Shown here: positions 5,514 through 30,677 of the stretch, in pieces
How positions within the stretch are numbered: the first letter of the stretch is position 1
How the letters are laid out: every line of letters starts with the position of its first letter
IMG/VR virus record: IMGVR_UViG_3300008255_000336
Span: 1-30,914 of that record
DNA: 30,914 nucleotides
Strand: one strand, 5' to 3'
Source: a virus
Lineage: Duplodnaviria; Caudoviricetes
The notes under the pieces: model-generated
The model's input: the letters and a program-made list of their open reading frames with translations, nothing else
The model's database searches: none
Told to the model about the DNA's origin: nothing
Program-made: the position numbers and the translations under genes

Positions 5514-7499
5514 TTAGTACATTCCCCTTCTGCTTAGTGATATTGCTAACTGTTGATCGACTACTGCTAGGTCAAGATCATTATTGATCGTGTTTTGGAA
5601 AGTCACGTTATTAGTAGTCTCGTTACTTGTTTGGTTGGTTGGCGACAATGCTCTTGAGATATCAGACGAGTATTTAGGTACTACGATACTATCAAGAGTT
5701 GTTTGTACGCCGGTTTTGAGCATATCTAGGCGGTCGTTAATTGACGGTGAGTTTCTCTTATCCATGTCGAAGGCTTCGGCAATGGTAGAGCGAACTTTGT
5801 CGGCAATATCCTTAATAGTTTCCCAAGCTCTTTTAAATGGACTTGTGAGTTTGTCGTAGAGTTGATTACCAAGATCTGCGATCGAACTAACCCACCCTCT
5901 GATTTTATCGAGTACGTCATCGACCATCTTTTGAATCCACTTGATAATAGCCTCGACCATATCAGGGATAATAGAGTGACCGACCAACACATCCCAGAGG
6001 TTTTTAAAGAAGTCGATTATACCTTTGACGAAACCTTTAATAGCGTTGAGTACTGTTTGGATCATTCCACTTATTACATTCCAGATACCCTCGGCGGCTG
6101 TCTTTGTGGACTCCCAGACTTTTTTCCAATCACCGGTAAAGATACCGACGATAATACCCATAATGCCCTGTATAAACTGAGCCATACCGGTAAAGGTTTG
6201 AATGATGTAGGGGAGTGCCTCACTAAATGCGGTCATTATTGCTGAGAGTAAGCCTAGTACTAAGGTGATTACTCCGGCCAGTAAACCGGCTAAGATCTGC
6301 AAAGTATCAACCATAATCGGGCCGAGTGTTTGTAGTAACTCATCGATCATAGGCTTTGAATCTTCGAGAGCTGTTTTAAAGTTGTTGATTGCTGGCGATA
6401 GTAGTCTGAAAAATATATCTGATACACCAGTCAATAAACCTGCTAGTCTGCCCCATAGATCACCCCAATTATTTAGGCTGTCGCTATTAGCAAACATATT
6501 ATCGAAGCCCTGTTGTATCTGAGCGATGATGTCATTGAAGTTGTAGAACGTAATACTTACGTCGTCGATTCTCTCTTTAAAAGCGCCCCATTGACCGCTA
6601 ATGATTTCGAGATAACCCTTTAGAGTATCCATTGATCCGAATACACCGGTAAGTGATTCATTGACTGCCGATAGTGGAGACTCGGCGCTTTGTACCTTAC
6701 TAGCAAAGTTGCCAATTAAACCGCCCAATCTATCGAACACGTCTAGCGCTCTCTCTGCGATTGTGATAACTGCATCGAAAACAGGTTGTAGTTTTTGTAG
6801 TCCGTCGTTCTTTAGATTCTCGAGACGTGCTTTAAACTGCATTGCTTTAGCGGCTGACGATTCAATCTTACCGCCCATTTCTTCCTGCTTTTGTGCGCCC
6901 CATTCAGTAACGGCATTGAGTAGGGCAGTCTTACGCTCTGTGTCTGTTAATTCCTCGGAAGTTTTACCGAGGGCTTTAGCGGCGTTCTCGTAGACCTCGC
7001 CCATCTTTAAAGTGATACCTAAGTTATCCAAAATAAGCGGAGATGCACGACCCACACCAGTAACGATAGAGTCAAGCATATAGCCCACGTCCTCACCCAT
7101 TGCGACGGCCTGAGTCCTAGCAATTTCCATAAGTGACCCCATCTTGTCGATAGGGATACCAAGCATTGAGGCTTTAACCGATTGTTTCATAAGATCAGCG
7201 TTTGAGACTGTCTTGTCGGTCATGTTTTGGAACTGATCTAAAAAGTGCTGAGATGATTTGCCGGCGTTCTCTGATAACTTAGTAAAAGTATTTTGTACGT
7301 CGGTTAATCTACCTGCCTCCTCTGAAAACTTAACACTAGCGGCAGTTGCGGCCGCAAAACCTGCGACTGCTACACCGGCGGCCACTCCGATAGTTTTCAT
7401 ACTTAGACCGGCGTTCTCTGCTGATTTCTGCACCTTCTCAAAGCCTTTGCTGGCTTCGTCTTTTGCCTTGATGATGTATTGCAATACTTCTGTGTTCAT
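5514..7499 (-). CDS. Tape measure protein
   Basis: 661 aa Ala/Gly-rich helical protein; IKAKDEAS N-terminus, GRASPLILDNLGI motif, Trp/Phe periodic repeats, GHSIIPDMV; follows tail chaperone. Confidence 0.9.
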   Translation of the reverse strand: MNTEVLQYIIKAKDEASKGFEKVQKSAENAGLSMKTIGVAAGVAVAGFAAATAASVKFSEEAGRLTDVQNTFTKLSENAGKSSQHFLDQFQNMTDKTVSNADLMKQSVKASMLGIPIDKMGSLMEIARTQAVAMGEDVGYMLDSIVTGVGRASPLILDNLGITLKMGEVYENAAKALGKTSEELTDTERKTALLNAVTEWGAQKQEEMGGKIESSAAKAMQFKARLENLKNDGLQKLQPVFDAVITIAERALDVFDRLGGLIGNFASKVQSAESPLSAVNESLTGVFGSMDTLKGYLEIISGQWGAFKERIDDVSITFYNFNDIIAQIQQGFDNMFANSDSLNNWGDLWGRLAGLLTGVSDIFFRLLSPAINNFKTALEDSKPMIDELLQTLGPIMVDTLQILAGLLAGVITLVLGLLSAIMTAFSEALPYIIQTFTGMAQFIQGIMGIIVGIFTGDWKKVWESTKTAAEGIWNVISGMIQTVLNAIKGFVKGIIDFFKNLWDVLVGHSIIPDMVEAIIKWIQKMVDDVLDKIRGWVSSIADLGNQLYDKLTSPFKRAWETIKDIADKVRSTIAEAFDMDKRNSPSINDRLDMLKTGVQTTLDSIVVPKYSSDISRALSPTNQTSNETTNNVTFQNTINNDLDLAVVDQQLAISLSRRGMY

Positions 7500-7708
7500 T
7501 TTTTAGGTGGGGGGGTAGTTTTTACCTTGTCGGCTACCTCTCTCTGTTTTAAGTATAGCATGGTTAGATTGACAAACTCAGCCGGTAGTTTATCCAACTC
7601 GTCAGGGAAACAATTAAAAATACGGCAAAGGTGTACTTGCTCGAACTCTTGCGGAAGGGGGTAACTTTCGTAACGGAAAAACTTAAAGAGATCTACTTCT
7701 TTTTTTTT
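7496..7708 (-). CDS. Tail assembly chaperone gpT-like extension reached by -1 frameshift
   Basis: A AAA AAG slippery heptamer before the gpG stop; -1 frame reads KEVDLFKFFRYESYPLPQEFEQVHLCRIFNCFPDELDKLPAEFVNLTMLYLKQREVADKVKTTPPPKK and stops overlapping the tape measure ATG (ATGA). Confidence 0.85.
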   Translation of the reverse strand, partial: KKKEVDLFKFFRYESYPLPQEFEQVHLCRIFNCFPDELDKLPAEFVNLTMLYLKQREVADKVKTTPPPKK

Positions 7709-8064
7709 CCGGATTGCATCTTCTCTCTTGTGTCATTGTAAACTTTGACACAATAGTTAAAGATAGGCTCAAATTGATCGGCGTCTAGCTCATCGATGAT
7801 AGAGTTAATTTCGTCTTGATTCTCAACTACTGAGTCACCGCTAACGATCTTTTGAATCATCAAAGGCACGAAGTAGTCCTCAACCTTAGTCATAATATCA
7901 GCGCCAAACTCTAAGCTGGCCGCCTTTAATTCTTTATCTTCGAGACTCGCACCAATCTTACCGAACTCTTGTAATTGTCTGCGATCTGCCTCACGATAAA
8001 CACGCCACGTTAATTTTTCTCTAACGTGTATCTCATATTTGCCGATGTTGAAAACTTTAGCCAT
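7693..8064 (-). CDS. Tail assembly chaperone (gpG-like)
   Basis: Between tail tube and tape measure; ends GKKKK on an A9 run; SD-like AAAAGGA upstream. Confidence 0.85.
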   Translation of the reverse strand: MAKVFNIGKYEIHVREKLTWRVYREADRRQLQEFGKIGASLEDKELKAASLEFGADIMTKVEDYFVPLMIQKIVSGDSVVENQDEINSIIDELDADQFEPIFNYCVKVYNDTREKMQSGKKKK

Positions 8065-8101
8065 TGTGTCCTTTTGTCTATTTTGTTTTTAACTACTAAT
8101 C

Positions 8102-11213: not shown

Positions 11214-11240
11214 TGTTAATGTGTCCTTTCGTCTGTTACA

Positions 11241-15361: not shown

Positions 15362-16909
15362 CTAGACCCAATCGACACCAACGTCTGTAAAGCGCTCTTT
15401 AGCTATAAAGGCGTAAACTAACGCTAGCATTAAGTGGTCTGGTTTGCCATTTCTCACGAAAGTAATTGTTTTATCTTTGTCGTCTTTTGCCTCTTTGACC
15501 ACACGGATTAAGTTTTTCATGTGTTCTCTAAAATGAGTGTCTTGTATTATTTCACGTGGGAAAGTTATCTCTGCGATCCTAATTGAGTGGAAGGCTCTAT
15601 CGATCCATAGTGAGCGATTGCGGTTAAGGATGTTGTACTCGCCGTCGTCTGATTCTTGCTCGTTATCCTTTTCAGTAAAGTAACAAATTGACCCTCTGGC
15701 CGGCAACGCTGTACATATCTCGATTGACATACGTGTCTCTGGTAGTGCATCGATCACAAAAGAGAAAACGCCATACTCTTTAAACTTCCTAATTACTTCG
15801 GCCGGATCTTTAGCCCTACCCCAATCGATCACCTTACCGTCTTTATCAATGATTACCCAATCCAAGAAACTACCGACATCAACACCACCGAATAGAGTAC
15901 CGGAGTATTCGCCTCGCTCTCTGTCTTTTTGGGTTGCTTTATTGAGATCGTCGTCGGTAAGTTTTCCGCCTTTTGGTGTGTAAGCTAGGCCAAGTTTCAT
16001 ATTGTAGAAAACCTGCATATCGTACTCACCTCGGCATCTCTTAAACGCTTCGATCATCTCTTGAGGTGTAACCGTAGGACTGTAGAGCTGATTGAGTGTG
16101 TAGCCTAAACGCTTTGACTTTTTGTGGTGAATCCAACGGCCACGAGCTAAGCGATCCATAGGCGCACCGCAGTACTTACAAAAGACCCCTCGCTCTGGGT
16201 CGTTGATATCGATGTTTTTATCCCAATGTAGAGACTGCTCTTTACCGCAAGCATCACACTTGAGATAGTATTCGGCCATCGTTGAATCATTGTAGAGAGC
16301 ATCAATACCAATGTCCGGAAAAGTAGGGTTACTCAGGTATTTAAAATACTTTTGAGAGAAACCGCTAGCACGTTCTTTAACCAATGAGACGATATCGGGA
16401 TTGTCGTACTTATCGACTTCGTCGAGTACTTGCCAGTTGGCCGGCATTTCGACAAGTTTAGTATCTGACTTTGCACCACGAAAATAAATCACTTTGCCAT
16501 TGCCGAAACGCTTTAGACCCATGTTATCGACTTTAGCTTGATCGCTATTACTAAACGCCGGACTATCTTCGATGATTGGATTGAGACGAGCGTTAGTAAA
16601 ATCGTAGACCTGACCCTCAGTAGGAAAAATGTAGATAGCGTTACCGATTAGTAGGGGATTCTTGATAAACCAGAGAGTAGTATTGATGCCGTAAGTAGTA
16701 AATGCTAACTGCGCCGCTTTTTTAACCACGATATCCGGATGATGAGCCATGTTGTAAAGCTCGACCATAAAAGGGTACTTATCTAGGGTAAATGGTTGAT
16801 TGAATAAAGTTATATTCTCAGTAGACCACCACCCGGGATTAAGTACCTCAAGATGTCTCGTCGTTAGTGGTTGTAGGTTCTTTGTCTGAGTTTTCATCGT
16901 CTGAATCAT
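15362..16909 (-). CDS. terL: Terminase large subunit, lambda GpA-like
   Basis: VVKKAAQLAFT Walker A variant, VLDEVD Walker B, SNPT, two CxxC pairs, GGVDVG and PDHL nuclease motifs. Confidence 0.9.
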   Translation of the reverse strand: MIQTMKTQTKNLQPLTTRHLEVLNPGWWSTENITLFNQPFTLDKYPFMVELYNMAHHPDIVVKKAAQLAFTTYGINTTLWFIKNPLLIGNAIYIFPTEGQVYDFTNARLNPIIEDSPAFSNSDQAKVDNMGLKRFGNGKVIYFRGAKSDTKLVEMPANWQVLDEVDKYDNPDIVSLVKERASGFSQKYFKYLSNPTFPDIGIDALYNDSTMAEYYLKCDACGKEQSLHWDKNIDINDPERGVFCKYCGAPMDRLARGRWIHHKKSKRLGYTLNQLYSPTVTPQEMIEAFKRCRGEYDMQVFYNMKLGLAYTPKGGKLTDDDLNKATQKDRERGEYSGTLFGGVDVGSFLDWVIIDKDGKVIDWGRAKDPAEVIRKFKEYGVFSFVIDALPETRMSIEICTALPARGSICYFTEKDNEQESDDGEYNILNRNRSLWIDRAFHSIRIAEITFPREIIQDTHFREHMKNLIRVVKEAKDDKDKTITFVRNGKPDHLMLALVYAFIAKERFTDVGVDWV

Positions 16910-19649: not shown

Positions 19650-19896
19650 TTTTAACGCTGTCCTTTTCGATCTCGGCGATTGCTTCCCGAGTTTCTTCTT
19701 TATAATTTGATGCTAGGTAAACTAAGATCGCTTTAACTAATGGCTTGAGATGTTTGTTTTCTCTAGCTACTATCTTGGCAACGTACATACCGCCGGCAAT
19801 ACTGATACCAAAAACACCGTTACCGATGAGAGTGTGTTCTTTGCCGTCTGAGTCTTGTACTTTAATTACTGGCATTTTCAAACTCTCCTCTCTCAC
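19642..19896 (-). CDS. Hypothetical protein (start probably the Met of MPVIK)
   Basis: GAGGAG SD before MPVIK; coupled overlaps. Confidence 0.55.
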   Translation of the reverse strand: MREESLKMPVIKVQDSDGKEHTLIGNGVFGISIAGGMYVAKIVARENKHLKPLVKAILVYLASNYKEETREAIAEIEKDSVKNA

Positions 19897-20991: not shown

Positions 20992-21417
20992 TTATCTCCT
21001 CTTGAGTTTGTAATGCTTTTTAAGCTCTAACTCTGTGCCGTCTGGCATATCTATTACGTTATTGTGGGTGTTGGTTTGGTAGACGTCGAGGGTGGCGAAT
21101 AAACCGAGTTGAGTTTCTTTTTTCTCTGCGTTCAACTCTTTAATATCGATCTCAAGCTCTAAGATCTGTTTGTTTCTGGCTCTCGCCATTGCCTTAGCTA
21201 CTTTGAGATCTCGCTGAGCTTCTTTGACCTTAGCCTGTGCCTCTGAGTAGTCGGCGTCGTTTTCGAGAGTATCTCGCAACATTTCACGCTTTAACTTGAG
21301 GTCTTGCTTTAATTGTTCTACTTGGCCGATCTGACGAATTGCATAACCTTTTACATCAATGGCCGGTCGCTCTATTACGATTTGAGCTGTCTCTTGATTG
21401 ACTAATGGGTTTGTCAT
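20992..21417 (-). CDS. Coiled-coil protein resembling a conserved Patescibacteria hypothetical family
   Basis: REML.D.LEND..Y.E...KVKEA...DGTELE pattern, recalled rather than searched; AAAGGG SD. Confidence 0.65.
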   Translation of the reverse strand: MTNPLVNQETAQIVIERPAIDVKGYAIRQIGQVEQLKQDLKLKREMLRDTLENDADYSEAQAKVKEAQRDLKVAKAMARARNKQILELEIDIKELNAEKKETQLGLFATLDVYQTNTHNNVIDMPDGTELELKKHYKLKRR

Positions 21418-21489
21418 TTTGTTGTTTCCCTTTTTTGTGTTCTTAATAATTTTTAGTTGTGGCCGACATTGATGTCGGTCGCAAATTGA

Positions 21490-21582
21490 TTACAGTTTTT
21501 TAAACAGTCGCCAGATAATCCATAGAGGAATACCGATCGGAAAAAACATAATCAAGAAAATAAAAATGATTGCTTTTTTCAT
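21490..21582 (-). CDS. 30-aa membrane peptide (absent from ORF track)
   Basis: MKKAIIFIFLIMFFPIGIPLWIIWRLFKKL; AAAGGAG SD. Confidence 0.55.
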   Translation of the reverse strand: MKKAIIFIFLIMFFPIGIPLWIIWRLFKKL

Positions 21583-22303: not shown

Positions 22304-22406
22304 AGCGTCCTTTCAAGATCAAACCCGGCGGCGTTTTACCGCCGGGAATCTTAGAGAGTTTGTGTTCAGACAAACGAAAACTTGGTATAGTGATCCTTCG
22401 TCTGAT

Positions 22407-22442
22407 ACAGTAATTAAAGCACATTATTTATATGATTGTCAA
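22407..22442 (-). promoter_or_regulatory. Sigma70-type promoter, conserved phage motif copy 1
   Basis: TTGACA-18 nt-TTTAAT, within AATGTGCTTTAATTAC. Confidence 0.75.
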
Positions 22443-23549: not shown

Positions 23550-23782
23550 TCTCTGATAGCCTTTCGTTGGTACTTTTTATAATTACGATCTATTTCAATG
23601 CTTGTAGCAGAGTGCATTTTTAGTATTTTCTTTATCTGTAAGTCGGTATCATCTACCACCTGCTCATCAACTTTGCCGATAGCTTCTAACGAGATTACTC
23701 TAGTGAGTAAGCCCGTTAGATTGCTATTAAGGTTCATTGAGTTAATTAAATGTTGAGTTAGTACGTCGCTATATTTAGACAT
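23546..23782 (-). CDS. Hypothetical protein
   Basis: Coupled to upstream gene. Confidence 0.55.
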   Translation of the reverse strand: MSKYSDVLTQHLINSMNLNSNLTGLLTRVISLEAIGKVDEQVVDDTDLQIKKILKMHSATSIEIDRNYKKYQRKAIRE

Positions 23783-25724
23783 AGTATCCTTGCGCTCTAA
23801 TTAGATCTCTCTCGCCGGGTTTCATAATCAAGCAATCACCATTACCTAACAATCGCTCTGCTCCGGTCTGATCTAACACAACCTTTGAGTCGATACTGGT
23901 TGAAACCATGTAGCAGACACGAGTAGGTAGGTTAGCTTTAAATGATCCTTTGATGACGTCTACACTTGGCCTCTGAGTAGCTAGGATTAAGTGAATACCG
24001 CTAGCCCTAGACTTCTGAGCCAATCTAACTAACATCATCTCGATTTCTTCTGCATAAGAGCGTTTGTAACTTTTCTCTTTGCCGTCGAGTTCTTGCTTTT
24101 CGACGTAGTTGTCTGGGTTCTGCAAAATGTCTGCCAACTCATCAACTACTATAACTACTCTGCTCATCTTAGTTTGTGCAATACTTTTTACTTTACGTCG
24201 TTTTAACTCGATGTAGCGTTGCTCCATGAGATCGACCATAGATGTTAATAACTTGTGGATATCTCCAATTTCAGAGTACACACCTCGTACACACTTCTCG
24301 CCCTCTAAGTGAGAAAACTCTGTGCGCTTTGGATCGACTAGGTGAAGTTGCAAACTGTTATTACTGTTCTGTTGAATTAAGGTGGTTATCATTGCCTCGA
24401 GTCCTATTGACTTACCGCTACCGGTTGCGCCGGCTACGAGTACATGAGGGGCAGACTCTAGGTTAATTGATACCTTATTCTTGTAAACGTCCTCACCTAC
24501 TGGCATTATCAACGATCGGTTATTTTCTAACTCTGGCAATTTAACAAAGTCTTGTTTTTCGTTTGAGAGTTCGATACCGACGTATTGAGTACCGGGAATT
24601 GGTGAGATTATGCGAGCTGACATACTGCCGGTAGCTTGCATCACATCAGGCTCGTGTTTTTGTAAGCTAGCCATCTTCACACCAACGCCGGGTAAGAATC
24701 GATACAATGTGGCGCTTGATCCCTTGAATTGATCGACATACTGTAGGTTTTGGCCGAAGTCTTGTAGTTTAACGATTATTTTCTCGTGAGGCTCTTTAGC
24801 TTCCATTACTGCGGTGTTAGCAATAGATGGCTCGAATTGCTTAGCCTGTACCTGCATGAGTGGTGACTTATTGACGATCTGAGGCATAACCAAGTCGTCG
24901 AGTGAGTCTTTGCGGTACTCCTCCCACACCTTACCGCCGAGCATACGATCCATAAAGTTAGGTTTAAACACTTTGTTAGGATTCGATAGATCGATGATGA
25001 TTGTGTCGTAAAGGTTTAAAAATACCTGTTTCCAGTCGTTAGTTTTCTCAAAGTCAATATAGATGAGGTTTGTTTGTTTACCGCCGTTACGATTCACGCT
25101 TGGCTTAATCTCAAAGAAGTAATAACCTCTCATCGGTCGGCCATACTTAGCCAACATAGCGAAGTAGTTAGCGGCCGCCTGTAGATTGTATTTTGCAAGT
25201 GAGACGTGATCGTCGCTTGTCTGTAGGTCTGCTTTAGTCTCTGTGAGAGATCGAGTAGTTTTCCAATCCCAACCGTAGATCTCGCCGTCAATCTCAGTAA
25301 CAAGGTCAGTAATTGCTTTAATTGGTACGGGAGACATCACACCGTCGCCGGTGTCAAAGTTGGCCGTGTTCTCTACCTCAGCGCCGATAACCTTACCGAC
25401 ACTTGGTAACTCGTTAGTGAAAAACTTAACTAGGTTTGCTAACTCTGCTTTACACTTATCACGTGATCCGGTTTTACCCCAATCGATTTTAGATGCTGGT
25501 CGCTCGTCGATTATCTGAATAGCGTCGGCCATTGCGATATCGTGGGCTACACCCTTAAACATCATCTCTGCGTATTTGTGGAAGGCAGAGCCGACTAACA
25601 TAGACGGTGTGCCTAAAAACAAGTCGTATCGGCTCTCAATGTATTTTAAAAACCAAGCATACTCATTGTTAGCATAGAGCGACATTGAGCTGTAGCTTAG
25701 GTGTTCGATTGGTAAAGTGTTCAT
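23775..25724 (-). CDS. PD-(D/E)XK (RecB/Cas4-like) nuclease fused to FtsK/SpoIIIE-type ATPase
   Basis: N-terminus LSYSS...GSAFH...E...IKAITDLV...DWKT; C-terminus ARIISPIPGTQYVGIELSN, PHVLVAGATGSGKS, LVDPKRTEF, VIVVDELADIL, RLAQKSRASGIHLILATQRPS, GAERLLGNGD. Confidence 0.9.
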   Translation of the reverse strand: MNTLPIEHLSYSSMSLYANNEYAWFLKYIESRYDLFLGTPSMLVGSAFHKYAEMMFKGVAHDIAMADAIQIIDERPASKIDWGKTGSRDKCKAELANLVKFFTNELPSVGKVIGAEVENTANFDTGDGVMSPVPIKAITDLVTEIDGEIYGWDWKTTRSLTETKADLQTSDDHVSLAKYNLQAAANYFAMLAKYGRPMRGYYFFEIKPSVNRNGGKQTNLIYIDFEKTNDWKQVFLNLYDTIIIDLSNPNKVFKPNFMDRMLGGKVWEEYRKDSLDDLVMPQIVNKSPLMQVQAKQFEPSIANTAVMEAKEPHEKIIVKLQDFGQNLQYVDQFKGSSATLYRFLPGVGVKMASLQKHEPDVMQATGSMSARIISPIPGTQYVGIELSNEKQDFVKLPELENNRSLIMPVGEDVYKNKVSINLESAPHVLVAGATGSGKSIGLEAMITTLIQQNSNNSLQLHLVDPKRTEFSHLEGEKCVRGVYSEIGDIHKLLTSMVDLMEQRYIELKRRKVKSIAQTKMSRVVIVVDELADILQNPDNYVEKQELDGKEKSYKRSYAEEIEMMLVRLAQKSRASGIHLILATQRPSVDVIKGSFKANLPTRVCYMVSTSIDSKVVLDQTGAERLLGNGDCLIMKPGERDLIRAQGYYV

Positions 25725-25758
25725 ATATCCCTTTTTTGTTTATTACTAATTTGTCTGT

Positions 25759-25793
25759 ACTGTAATTAAAGCACATTAAAATTAGCTTTGCAA
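25759..25793 (-). promoter_or_regulatory. Sigma70-type promoter, conserved phage motif copy 2
   Basis: TTGCAA-17 nt-TTTAAT, within AATGTGCTTTAATTAC. Confidence 0.75.
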
Positions 25794-26870
25794 CTGTGAT
25801 TTTAAATCGTTAATTAAGTCTAGTAACTGTTGGTCGCTTAGATCTTTAATCGACTTGATACCTAGTATTTTTTTCTGCTCCTCGTGAGTGCGTTTTAGGC
25901 TTTTGAGCATACCGAAATAGGTATTTAACATCCATTGACGATCGAATCCGCCGTTATCTTGTACACTCTTAGCTTTTGTATCTTGAGGTGTTTCGTTGAT
26001 TACTTGTGCATCTTGTACACTTTCGGCCGGTTTGTTTCGATTCATCTTTTTAGCCACAAAGTCATTGACGTTGTTTTGAGTGGCCGGTGATCCTTCCGGT
26101 GATCCGTCGATTACCACATCGTCAGGTGTGTTGTCTGGGTAGTCCAATCTATCGCCATCGACTACGGCCTGATCCGCTACTTGAGCCTTAGACATTGCAA
26201 CGCTCATCGGTGCGTACTTAGATAACAGAGTTTTTAAAACTGTTTTCTTTGCCATAGATTCAAAGTCATCAACCCATAGGCCGTAACCTTTGCGGAATGA
26301 CTTAGAGAATCGTTTACCGTGCTTTTGTAGTTGAGGGATTGATTGATAGTATTGTTTATTAAAACCGTTAGACAATTCCATATAGGCAACGTAGCCGATT
26401 GTTACTGCCTTCTCTCTAGCCTCATCCTCTAACCACTCGAAGATCATATCGCCAGTTAATCGATTGACGCCTTTAATTTCGCCCTCTTTAACATCGGTGA
26501 CGTTTAACTTAGCAAACTCACCGGATCTCATGGCTAATTGAATAAAACCCTTATAGCCGATCTGAAACTGTGCGATCTGAGTACCGCCCTGATTCTTGTC
26601 TTTGTAGGGAATGATATAAGCAAAGCCGAGGTTTTGATTGATTGGTAAATCGAGAGTTGCGGCCAATAAACAGGCAGACATTACACTCTTTTTGTCAGCC
26701 TCTTTTAAGATGTGATTGCTATTCACCAATGAAACAACCGAAGTAATAAACTGTTGGCTACGAGCGCCTAGAGTTTCCTCGATCATTTTTCTAGTAACGT
26801 CTTGGCTCATGTACTGAGCGATTGAGACTTTGGGGTCTATTGTGGCCGGGAGATTGTTATTTTTTGTCAT
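25782..26870 (-). CDS. recT: RecT-family single-strand annealing recombinase (start reassigned to ATG 26870)
   Basis: LGFAYIIPY, AQFQIGYKGFIQLAMRSG, MAKKTVLK.LLSKYAPMS; GAAAGGA SD before ATG 26870. Confidence 0.92.
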   Translation of the reverse strand: MTKNNNLPATIDPKVSIAQYMSQDVTRKMIEETLGARSQQFITSVVSLVNSNHILKEADKKSVMSACLLAATLDLPINQNLGFAYIIPYKDKNQGGTQIAQFQIGYKGFIQLAMRSGEFAKLNVTDVKEGEIKGVNRLTGDMIFEWLEDEAREKAVTIGYVAYMELSNGFNKQYYQSIPQLQKHGKRFSKSFRKGYGLWVDDFESMAKKTVLKTLLSKYAPMSVAMSKAQVADQAVVDGDRLDYPDNTPDDVVIDGSPEGSPATQNNVNDFVAKKMNRNKPAESVQDAQVINETPQDTKAKSVQDNGGFDRQWMLNTYFGMLKSLKRTHEEQKKILGIKSIKDLSDQQLLDLINDLKSQLQS

Positions 26871-26908
26871 GTGTTCCTTTCGTTTATAATTTGTCTGAAT
26901 CATAACTA

Positions 26909-27659: not shown

Positions 27660-28271
27660 TTAGACCTCCTGATAACTTTTATACTTAGTACCCCACTTAA
27701 TAGCTTCGTCGTATGTGTTGAAAAATAAATCGAATCTGGCCTCGCCTTTAATAGATCCGCCCACATCTTCACAAGTGACGACTCCTACCCCTTCGATCTC
27801 GAATTGTTTACCGAGGTACTTAGCAGGGCAGGCTACAGTTTTTAAGTGTCTTGGAGTTGTGCCGGTAGCTGTTCTACCGTTTACTGAGTTTTTTAAGCTA
27901 GGGCAGTTCATGGCTATTTGATCCTCTGTCATCGTAGGATCGCAAGTATAAGCCGTGATTTTAGCTAACTGCTTAACCGGTGGCTCGATCGGGAGTTGCA
28001 CCACATTTTCGGACTCGTCTACTGTGACGTTAGCCCGCAAGTCACCGGTTAAACCGTCAGCGTCAGCACGTGGTAAAAATTGAGACTCGTAGTTTTCAGG
28101 TAATGGACTTAATAGCTCTACTGGTTGGTTGTAGTAAATTGAGTAAGCGATTGTCAGTCCTACTAAAAAGCCGGCAATAGAGACGCCGATTAAAATTAGT
28201 TTTCTTAGGTTGCCTACTGTGAGAATAAGTGAGTCAGTAATAAAGATTACTTGATGTTGTTCTTTTGTCAT
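27660..28271 (-). CDS. Membrane-anchored 3D-domain (MltA-like) cell-wall enzyme
   Basis: N-terminal TM; ITAY...TATG...VACP...CEDVGGSIKG..RFDLFF...AIKWG signature. Confidence 0.85.
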   Translation of the reverse strand: MTKEQHQVIFITDSLILTVGNLRKLILIGVSIAGFLVGLTIAYSIYYNQPVELLSPLPENYESQFLPRADADGLTGDLRANVTVDESENVVQLPIEPPVKQLAKITAYTCDPTMTEDQIAMNCPSLKNSVNGRTATGTTPRHLKTVACPAKYLGKQFEIEGVGVVTCEDVGGSIKGEARFDLFFNTYDEAIKWGTKYKSYQEV

Positions 28272-28306
28272 AATGTAATTAAAGCATATTATGTCGGTTG
28301 GTGCAA
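28272..28306 (-). promoter_or_regulatory. Sigma70-type promoter, conserved motif copy 3, predicted leaderless
   Basis: TTGCAC-17 nt-TTTAAT-6 nt-ATG, within AATATGCTTTAATTAC. Confidence 0.8.
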
Positions 28307-28793: not shown

Positions 28794-28883
28794 GTCACCC
28801 TATGGGAATCGAACCCATCTCTGCCGGCTAGAGGTTAATTAGGCCTCCTGCACCGGCCGTCCTGCCGATAGACGAAAGATCAC
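28794..28883 (-). ncRNA. tRNA-like element with expanded anticodon arm
   Basis: D arm GTCT-ATCGGCA-GGAC, stem GCCGG/CCGGC around 25 nt, perfect T arm ATGGG-TTCGATT-CCCAT, imperfect acceptor stem, no CCA. Confidence 0.7.
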
Positions 28884-29278: not shown

Positions 29279-29479
29279 AAAAAAACCGCTTTCGGCTTGG
29301 CAAAGGCTAGTAAAACTAGACTTTTGGCAAAGTGAACCTCTGCCAATGCGAAAACGGTTGTCTCCGCTAATTTTACTATACTTATCCCACTTTGGTAACT
29401 ACCGTGTAGGGATGCCGGTTATAAGCCGGACACTTTGCCAATTACAAACACAATAGCATTGAAAACATAAACTTTGCAA
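29279..29479 (-). promoter_or_regulatory. Promoter plus C4/CI-like attenuator leader
   Basis: TTGCAA-18 nt-TATTGT with TG extension; terminator-like stem 29284-29294/29349-29359 plus T7; loop sequences complementary to upstream leader boxes. Confidence 0.7.
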
Positions 29480-29634: not shown

Positions 29635-29701
29635 AAATAAAACACCCCCTCGATTTTTTGATTCAGACAAAAGAACACAAAAAAGGGATTGAGGGGGTGC
29701 A
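29635..29701 (-). ncRNA. Hairpin sRNA antisense to several phage ribosome-binding regions
   Basis: TATACT at 29708-29713; GCACCCCCTC/GAGGGGGTGT stem, T-rich tail; internal 13-18 nt complementarity to five leaders. Confidence 0.7.
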
Positions 29702-29823
29702 ACATCAAGTATAGAACACAAGCGACCGATGGTAAATACAAAGATCTAAACCTTTGCTATCGGTCGCCACGTGTAGCTCACAACAAACTCGCTAGAATAG
29801 CCTACGTGGTGCGTTGTGTGCTG

Positions 29824-29902
29824 TGGACATGGTGGGACTCGAACCAACGTCACAAACTCGTCGCATTGAGCGGTTTAAAGTTTGACAGTACCAATCATGC
29901 CC
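29824..29902 (-). ncRNA. Minimal tmRNA-like tRNA-like domain RNA lacking the mRNA-like domain
   Basis: Acceptor GGGCATG/CATGTCC-A with G3:U wobble, unpaired D-loop with GG, helix CAAACTT/GAGTTTG, GAC linker, T loop TTCGAGT. Confidence 0.75.
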
Positions 29903-30047
29903 TAGTTTTTAAAAGCTCGTCACTACTAACCGCAGTATTGCGATACTCAATTCCGTTCTTATGTTTTTTGAGTACCTCTTTTTTTCGACGCTCTATTTCA
30001 TCGTCGCTGAGCTTTTTGTTTGGGAGATCTTTTTTTTGATCGGCCAT
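29895..30047 (-). CDS. 50-aa charged peptide (absent from ORF track) ending inside the tmRNA-like RNA
   Basis: MADQKKDLPNKKLSDDEIERRKKEVLKKHKNGIEYRNTAVSSDELLKTRA; consensus TGcTATAAT lies 9 nt upstream. Confidence 0.6.
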   Translation of the reverse strand: MADQKKDLPNKKLSDDEIERRKKEVLKKHKNGIEYRNTAVSSDELLKTRA

Positions 30048-30067: not shown

Positions 30068-30382
30068 TTACTTTTTGCGGTTGTTTAGTTTCTTAACTAA
30101 GAAAACAAACGACCAAGCAAGCGCAGTCAAAACAAAGTTTACAAAAACACTTCGTTTATTCGCTAATGGATGCGGACTAATTAAATCAAAGAATCTAAGA
30201 GTGTAATACAGAGCGTTAAATAGTGATGCTAAAAAAATGGCAATAAACATAAAAAGTAAATTGCCTTTTGCTTCGCCATCGATTTTATTCAAATAGCGAA
30301 TCATCATCACGTCGGCCGGTAGGGCGGATAACGCAAAGAGCAAGTTAATCATGTTTAATGCGTTTACCGAGTCGATATCCAT
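30068..30382 (-). CDS. Three-TM membrane protein, possible holin
   Basis: Three hydrophobic segments and basic C-terminal tail. Confidence 0.5.
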   Translation of the reverse strand: MDIDSVNALNMINLLFALSALPADVMMIRYLNKIDGEAKGNLLFMFIAIFLASLFNALYYTLRFFDLISPHPLANKRSVFVNFVLTALAWSFVFLVKKLNNRKK

Positions 30383-30392
30383 AATGTTTATT

Positions 30393-30677
30393 TTAACCTT
30401 TTCTTAGAGTACTTACTACCACGTCTGAGAGATTGCGAGTAGCTTCTGTGTTCTTTTCGATTGTCGATTTCATTTGTTCGACGATCTTAGTATTTTGATT
30501 AAAGGCTACCAAAACTTTCTCGCTCATCGCTTCGGTCTGTTTATCCTTAGATTCGATCTTAGCTTCTTTTTCAGCCATCTTAGACTTGTGGTACTCCCAC
30601 ACCTTATTAAGTAGGTATAAAAAGACTGCTGAGAATCCGAGAGATGGCAGGAATGTTTTAAGTAGTTCAGCTTCCAT
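30393..30677 (-). CDS. BhlA/UviB-like holin-type protein (start reassigned to ATG 30677)
   Basis: Single N-terminal TM (LGFSAVFLYLL) then coiled coil; TATACT lies 6 nt before ATG 30677. Confidence 0.55.
   Translation of the reverse strand: MEAELLKTFLPSLGFSAVFLYLLNKVWEYHKSKMAEKEAKIESKDKQTEAMSEKVLVAFNQNTKIVEQMKSTIEKNTEATRNLSDVVVSTLRKG

Follow-up and report, generated by a model that had tools for sequence, protein, structure and literature searches.

A predicted phage hairpin RNA complementary to start regions of the phage's own genes

Introduction

C4 of phages P1 and P7 (RF01695) is built, in the outline given by PMC5320573, from three stem-loops (P1-P3), and places one loop over a ribosome-binding site and another over a segment upstream. 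According to the literature (PMC5320573, PMC8201110, PMC2864571), it is cut from a precursor by RNase P, begins with GGW at its 5' end, and controls the immI antirepressor region. VpdS of phage VP882 and PreS of lambda are phage-encoded, trans-acting small RNAs that affect the phage life cycle, and are presented in the account of PMC12197685 as Hfq-dependent and acting largely on host RNAs. OppZ and CarZ are bacterial RNAs that come from the 3' end of an operon and repress that same operon by base pairing, a feedback on the RNA's own gene neighbourhood, as outlined in PMC7398697. The phage antisense regulators compared here thus act on one operon (C4) or are Hfq-based and act mostly on host RNAs. 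P4 CI RNA pairs with its phage's own transcript, and acts on one leader through termination. In the literature covered, which includes few subscription journals, we found no single phage RNA matching many of its own start regions, and nothing on small RNAs of Patescibacteria phages.

Here we describe a predicted hairpin RNA in a 30,914-nucleotide stretch of phage DNA (the window; IMG/VR record IMGVR_UViG_3300008255_000336), whose interior is complementary to the start regions of several of the phage's own genes. Like C4, which is ~70-80 nt long, it is phage-encoded and would act in trans on the phage's own mRNA, and its two-part sites in the recT and exonuclease-FtsK leaders resemble the ribosome-binding-site segment and upstream specificity segment described for C4. 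It differs from C4 in being a single clamped hairpin with its own -10 box and with seven predicted targets across early and assembly modules. With P4 CI RNA it shares small size and a co-directional position at the head of the early region, but its sites lie mostly over the SDs and starts of many genes. Phage origin and predicted trans action also link it to VpdS and PreS, in contrast to which it has long matches to phage starts; moreover, Hfq (PF17209) was found in 0/101 sampled genomes of the host type (control positive in 5/14), these being small, incomplete genomes of a phylum that was itself inferred. Feedback repression by base pairing would be common to it and to OppZ and CarZ, from which it differs as a separate RNA gene with phage targets genome-wide.

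Results

The record is that of a linear, small tailed phage, 93% complete, and an identical contig of 33,273 bp in the metagenome scan places ~2.4 kb of the genome outside the window. All annotated genes are on the minus strand, so that the targets discussed below exist as mRNA; PHROGs comparison gave terminase, portal, protease, capsid, tail and tape-measure genes, an exonuclease-FtsK fusion and recT. Several late genes look as if they sit behind ordinary host promoters. Among the 46 and 26 proteins scanned, with ~2.4 kb lying outside the window, no HTH protein, integrase, antirepressor, icd/ant gene or other RNA- or DNA-binding regulator was recognised.

The host probably belongs, by inference, to the Patescibacteria (ultra-small bacteria). 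Roizmanbacteria and Woesebacteria are the commonest phyla in the clusters nearest to the coiled-coil protein of gene 21417, and the closest match of the 3D protein in named genomes is a Saccharibacteria MAG. A profile of the coiled-coil protein matched 40/401 small genomes of the phylum of G039, once in each, which gives this phage-carried gene the look of a host-type gene. The gene (20992-21417, minus) follows the leader that is the strongest target of the hairpin RNA, and just upstream of it, at ~21485-21582 (minus), is an unlisted hydrophobic ORF of ~31 aa with a good SD. The PD-(D/E)XK exonuclease-FtsK fusion (23775-25724, minus) marks a family of small phages with ~45 full-length relatives, in which it often adjoins recT.

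Between 28272 and 29900 lies a largely non-coding block, where we predict, from sequence signals, a gene for a 67-nt hairpin small RNA (29701-29635, minus) with the following parts.

29708..29713, minus: -10 box TATACT, with a 6-nt spacer to a start at ~29701, the spacing seen in the phage's own genes
29635..29701, minus: predicted 67-nt hairpin small RNA, -24.7 kcal/mol, z -5.5, non-coding on the transcribed strand
29691..29700, minus: 5' arm of the 10-bp GC clamp, from the fold
29652..29690, minus: antisense interior, with AAUCCC bulge, weak inner helix and open UUUUGUCU seed loop (29665-29672)
29635..29651, minus: 3' arm of the clamp and U tail, a terminator-like end, from the fold; the plus strand has no U run after the hairpin

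The minus-strand fold has a loop of 8 nt, UUUUGUCU, on a weak inner helix of A-U pairs, together with the AAUCCC bulge, basal stem and U tail listed above; 0/200 shuffled sequences equalled it in stability, and the TATACT, 10-bp base stem and U tail of the original prediction were all confirmed. The spacing expected of the -10 box was fixed by the phage's own genes, 6/50 of which carry a TANNNT box exactly 12 nt before the start codon (~1 expected); by the position of this box, several of these genes look leaderless. A scan for terminators with short loops does not list the 3' end of the hairpin. In a look for expression, the one run compared with the window covers 30209-30509, a stretch away from the element, and weighs neither for nor against its transcription. 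We conclude that the hairpin is a real, non-random and unannotated feature. A plus-strand ORF of 116 aa across the same place (29689-30039) was rejected as a gene, having a TTG start without SD spacing and no Pfam match; its overlap with minus-strand RNA-like elements was also counted against it.

The element was compared with C4 and with RNA families in general. No Rfam family matched at gathering score, and at E <= 5 matches were at chance level only; the C4 covariance model (RF01695) gave no match at gathering score and none at E <= 5 (0/1, with control genomes also negative). The predicted fold is one clamped hairpin and not P1-P3, and the stem begins with GCA, not with the GGW of C4, 6 nt downstream of the -10 box. 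A promoter and a terminator-like end, both as sequence signals, are present on the strand antisense to the targets, as in trans-antisense small RNAs in general. The best reading is that the hairpin would work in the manner of C4, through a complementarity to the phage's own ribosome-binding regions that exceeds chance, but lies outside the C4 family by the tests of that family.

The complementary sites are given below with their net energies of binding, which include the costs of opening both strands.

21427..21444, minus: SD region of coiled-coil gene 21417, 18/18, -18.3 kcal/mol
25727..25757, minus: exonuclease-FtsK leader, 13/13 across the SD and a seed site at the transcript's predicted 5' end, -17.1 kcal/mol
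8064..8079, minus: gene 8064, 16 bp (one G:U) from the SD to the start codon, -14.6 kcal/mol
26870..26902, minus: recT leader (13/13) and SD (11 bp, one G:U), -13.8 kcal/mol
11220..11235, minus: SD of 11213, the 63-aa gene that follows the major capsid gene, 16 bp (two G:U), -12.0 kcal/mol
28258..28269, minus: 3D-domain mRNA, predicted to be leaderless, at +3 to +14, 12/12, -11.6 kcal/mol
16880..16908, minus: terL start, a tandem pair of sites that also lies over the end of the preceding ORF, -10.6 kcal/mol
22362..22405, minus: leader of gene 22303, target-like 5' end predicted to be inaccessible, -1.9 kcal/mol

All six matches from which the element had been proposed were exact at their positions: the uninterrupted ones at 21427-21444, 25727-25739 and 26890-26902, the 11 bp at 26870-26880, and the two of 16 bp at 8064-8079 and 11220-11235. 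Further sites were found at 28258-28269, 16897-16908, 16881-16889 and 25750-25757, inside genes 19875 (19833-19842) and 30695 (30444-30457), and in the 22303 leader (22394-22405). Different targets pair with different registers of the RNA, and two of the sites are within coding sequence. Gene 8064 has the position of a tail chaperone, between the tail tube and tape measure genes. The non-ORF stretch that follows it (7500-7692, minus) resembles the frameshifted second half of a tail assembly chaperone, which we assume from its position and by analogy to lambda G/GT.

Pairing strength was evaluated by an RNAup-like approximation of our own. The seed loop UUUUGUCU is fully open, opening the whole interior costs ~7.4 kcal/mol, and with opening costs included, 7/49 start regions (21417, exonuclease-FtsK, 8064, recT, 11213, 3D and terL) bind at -18.3 to -10.6 kcal/mol, the rest at -7.4 kcal/mol or weaker. 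Plain two-strand cofolding, which cannot place a duplex inside the closed clamp, put the targets at 0 to -3.3 kcal/mol and so did not set them apart from controls (+0.2 to -2.7). The leaders of genes 21961 and 27147, included originally for their AGACAAA words, bind at about background (-7.4 and -6.7 kcal/mol), and these two leaders were dropped as firm targets, together with those of 19875 (whose site was partly cut off by the stretch used in this calculation) and 22303, once opening costs were counted.

The shuffle control proposed with the original prediction came out in its favour: with a hand-curated list of starts, the interior forms four helices of at least 13 bp with at most one G:U at start regions, compared with a mean of 0.055 and a maximum of 1 for 400 dinucleotide shuffles (0/400). 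For helices of at least 12 bp, 6/7 fall in start regions, which make up 7.2% of the genome. When 20 related phages were added, with one automatic gene caller used for all genomes, helices of at least 12 bp with at most one G:U were found in 6/45 own start regions vs 5/957 foreign ones (p = 2e-6), and in 4/45 vs 1/957 when only Watson-Crick pairs were allowed. The excess in the own genome persists among regions that contain AAGGA (13 bp with up to two G:U; own 3/13 vs foreign 1/186), so it is not mere anti-SD complementarity. Every 39-nt window of the genome was also scanned as an antisense query, and the hairpin interior was the only minus-strand place that reached six start regions, the next best reaching three. 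On the plus strand, six were also reached by three sequences, namely those complementary to the recT leader, the exonuclease-FtsK leader and the 30695 site, indicating that the targets are alike and not independent of one another; the repeated promoter-leader modules common in relatives likewise mean that they should not be counted as independent events.

It had also been argued that every deviation in the matches is G:U-compatible for a minus-strand RNA. This is true of the listed sites, and transitions favour wobble by 7:0 and 11:3, but it says little about the strand, because in the A-rich target core A>G is the commonest transition, and A>G also improves the SD.

An unusual promoter-like sequence accompanies some of the sites.

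28275..28286, minus: atypical promoter-like box TGCTTTAATTAC, with identical copies also at 25773 and 22421

The boxes carry T where A is normal, and in all three cases (3/3) a complement of the seed loop comes next, no more than a few bases from the predicted start. At the third box, the 5' end of the 22303 leader folds back on an internal near-copy of the hairpin RNA's seed. This ~100-nt structured leader (22304-22421, minus) thus has its own promoter-like box, a seed near-copy, and a terminator-like hairpin before gene 22303, and, as judged from its sequence, might act as a switch or a sponge or be another small RNA. The link between TGCTTTAATTAC and the seed, together with the near-copy in the 22303 leader, fits a hairpin that arose from duplication of an early promoter-leader module and acquired its late-gene targets at a later stage, and would also be compatible with an action on nascent transcripts.

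To find relatives of the element, viral sequences were scanned with patterns of the hairpin, yielding 5 chance matches in one case and 35 in another, none related to the window; among the 97 matches of a further scan, only G005 itself had promoter and targets. No homologue of the hairpin was found by blastn against GenBank phages, in genome contigs, or among viral contigs obtained with recT, capsid and coiled-coil queries, and the metagenome scan yielded one identical contig stretch and one relative, neither of which covers the element. The closest exonuclease-FtsK proteins are 86% and 46% identical to that of the window, and in G018, the relative with the greatest synteny, the element's place holds no non-coding block.

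A blind detector of U-tailed hairpins whose interior pairs with start regions placed the window's element first among 82 overlapping hairpin calls in 40 sequences, and again first among the 58 candidates with a promoter obtained from 109 sequences, some of them redundant. What looked like hubs in other relatives turned out to be leaders of opposite-strand genes or terminal repeats, and were rejected. By this detector, 19 of the 20 relatives have no clear equivalent; the remaining one, G005, is a complete 37-kb phage that is distantly related to the window (35% identity in exonuclease-FtsK).

G005:C1:3262-3345 (L097), plus: analogous promoter-hairpin-U-tail element, antisense to the phage's own leaders

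In the G005 element, TGGTATACT and a short spacer lead into a GC-clamped hairpin with a U tail, which shares the word UUUGUCU with the window's RNA; its interior pairs with the leaders of the exonuclease-FtsK, small early, minor tail and major capsid genes, on both strands. On the orthologous exonuclease-FtsK leaders, a single pair, each RNA prefers its own, with duplex energies of -26.6 vs -13.5 and -21.3 vs -14.3 for the interiors alone, the energies becoming unspecific when the stem ends are part of the query. Enrichment at G005 starts is weak (4/54 vs 19/948 at >=10 bp, p = 0.03; 1/54 vs 8/948 at >=11 bp), and the hairpin also looks like a two-way terminator that closes a minus-strand operon. 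Homology of the two elements was rejected, a two-row alignment having shown none that is real beyond the promoter. A possible third case is a short promoter-led hairpin in L015 (~5545-5600, minus), whose loop is complementary to one gene leader at ~13566. In G014, G005, G010 and G026, promoter-plus-leader modules are repeated nearly word for word ahead of several genes on both strands.

Discussion

From these sequence comparisons, the hairpin RNA is probably a trans-acting antisense repressor of the phage's own translation. The original proposal of a multi-target translational repressor read from the minus strand stands as the best reading, given the minus-strand promoter box and U tail, the placement of sites over SDs and starts, and the genome-specificity of the matches. 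Acting in trans, the ~67-nt RNA would anneal to seven mRNAs of the phage itself at their start regions and so keep them from being translated. Geometry, and the action described for C4, suggest that first contact would be made through the open UUUUGUCU loop, which holds what we take to be a YUNR-type motif of the kind found in plasmid antisense RNAs; the weak inner helix would then unzip into a duplex of 12-18 bp while the GC clamp stays shut. Ribosome entry would be stopped by covering the SD of 21417, exonuclease-FtsK, recT, 11213 and 8064 and, for terL and the leaderless 3D gene, by covering the start. The action is probably Hfq-independent, and such long pairing would suit a host without Hfq.

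The predicted targets combine early genes (3D, recT, exonuclease-FtsK and coiled-coil) with assembly genes (terL, head and tail chaperone), and the RNA would accordingly damp early operons through their lead genes, and packaging, head and tail through a single gene each. Since late genes sit behind ordinary-looking promoters and no regulator was recognised, damping these genes would hold back the lytic programme, making timing or quiescence a likely role, although this is the least certain step. It had been suggested that the RNA stands in for a protein repressor; with the genome incomplete, we treat this as a possibility only. If the proposal is true, a single short RNA fitted to the start regions of seven genes of its phage would make a regulon run by RNA alone, and would suggest how phages of minimal, apparently Hfq-less bacteria time genes that lie behind ordinary promoters.

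Alternatively, the hairpin may be a relic that does nothing in trans: it would then be a hairpin for termination or stabilisation, its loop having come from a duplicated promoter-leader module copied in inverted orientation. This would account for the three identical boxes and similar leaders in the window, for the seed near-copy in cis in the 22303 leader and for the repeated modules in four relatives, and the G005 hairpin does close an operon. However, no one leader accounts for the whole interior, which is a mosaic; its targets use different registers; and the matches extend to two in-frame sites within coding sequence and to late genes whose upstream sequences are unrelated. The hairpin also has its own -10 box at the right spacing, and together these points make the relic explanation unlikely.

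It is quite unlikely that the sites are instead a shared leader motif bound by a protein, whether a translational repressor or one that reads a DNA operator, with the element as a sense-strand decoy or other site. The plus strand of the element folds as well as the minus strand (z -6.4), presenting the sense motif in a large loop, there is a plus-strand TATACT at 29377, and the strand of the G005 operon also reads the sense motif in a loop; the direction of the G:U pairs is weak evidence against such a reading. On the other side, the plus strand has no annotated gene, no U tail and no adjacent -10 box, tail and box being on the minus strand, and the sites do not share a single invariant word. 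Nor is the motif enriched in 401 host-type genomes (1 match vs 5 for the control), and no candidate binding protein was recognised among those scanned.

The RNA could also act on transcription, by pairing with nascent 5' ends or with the opened non-template strand at a dedicated class of promoter and so causing early termination, for which P4 CI RNA is a precedent. The seed complements behind all TGCTTTAATTAC boxes, their T at a position where A is normal, and the terminator-like hairpin of the 22303 leader are in keeping with this. We nevertheless consider it quite unlikely, as the strongest sites (21417, 8064 and 11213) cover SDs with no evident promoter, and freeing the seed site of the 22303 leader did not remove the downstream hairpin in folding. 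Chance complementarity between a pyrimidine-rich loop and A/G-rich leaders, favoured by a low-complexity core with anti-SD-like words and by the strand bias of SD words here, is largely refuted by the foreign-leader control and, with the shuffles and the antisense scan also against it, extremely improbable.

Translational repression by pairing in trans is therefore the reading we prefer. A bolder form of it, which we regard as doubtful, makes this chaperone-free 67-nt RNA a master switch in place of a protein regulator, reading the 5' ends made from a dedicated early promoter class, leaderless mRNA included, plus one bottleneck gene each in packaging, head and tail; Patescibacteria phages, with G005 as a second case, would then have evolved such hairpins to their own leader code.

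The surroundings of the element hold further structures on the minus strand. Two more stable hairpins lie directly upstream, in 29715-29830 (z -4.1 for 29715-29770, -3.5 for the whole stretch), and TG-extended -10 boxes at 29635, 29458 and 28749 suggest a putative cluster of small RNA genes around the element. At 28794-28875, ARAGORN calls a tRNA-Ile with anticodon AAT, unusual in bacteria, and with a long irregular arm, which may be a pseudo-tRNA. A tRNA-like element at 29824-29902, missed by ARAGORN and scoring 17.8 bits, below threshold, with the Rfam tRNA model, has a T arm and, in its acceptor stem, a G3:U pair, but lacks a normal D arm, and presumably resembles the tRNA-like domain of tmRNA without its coding part.
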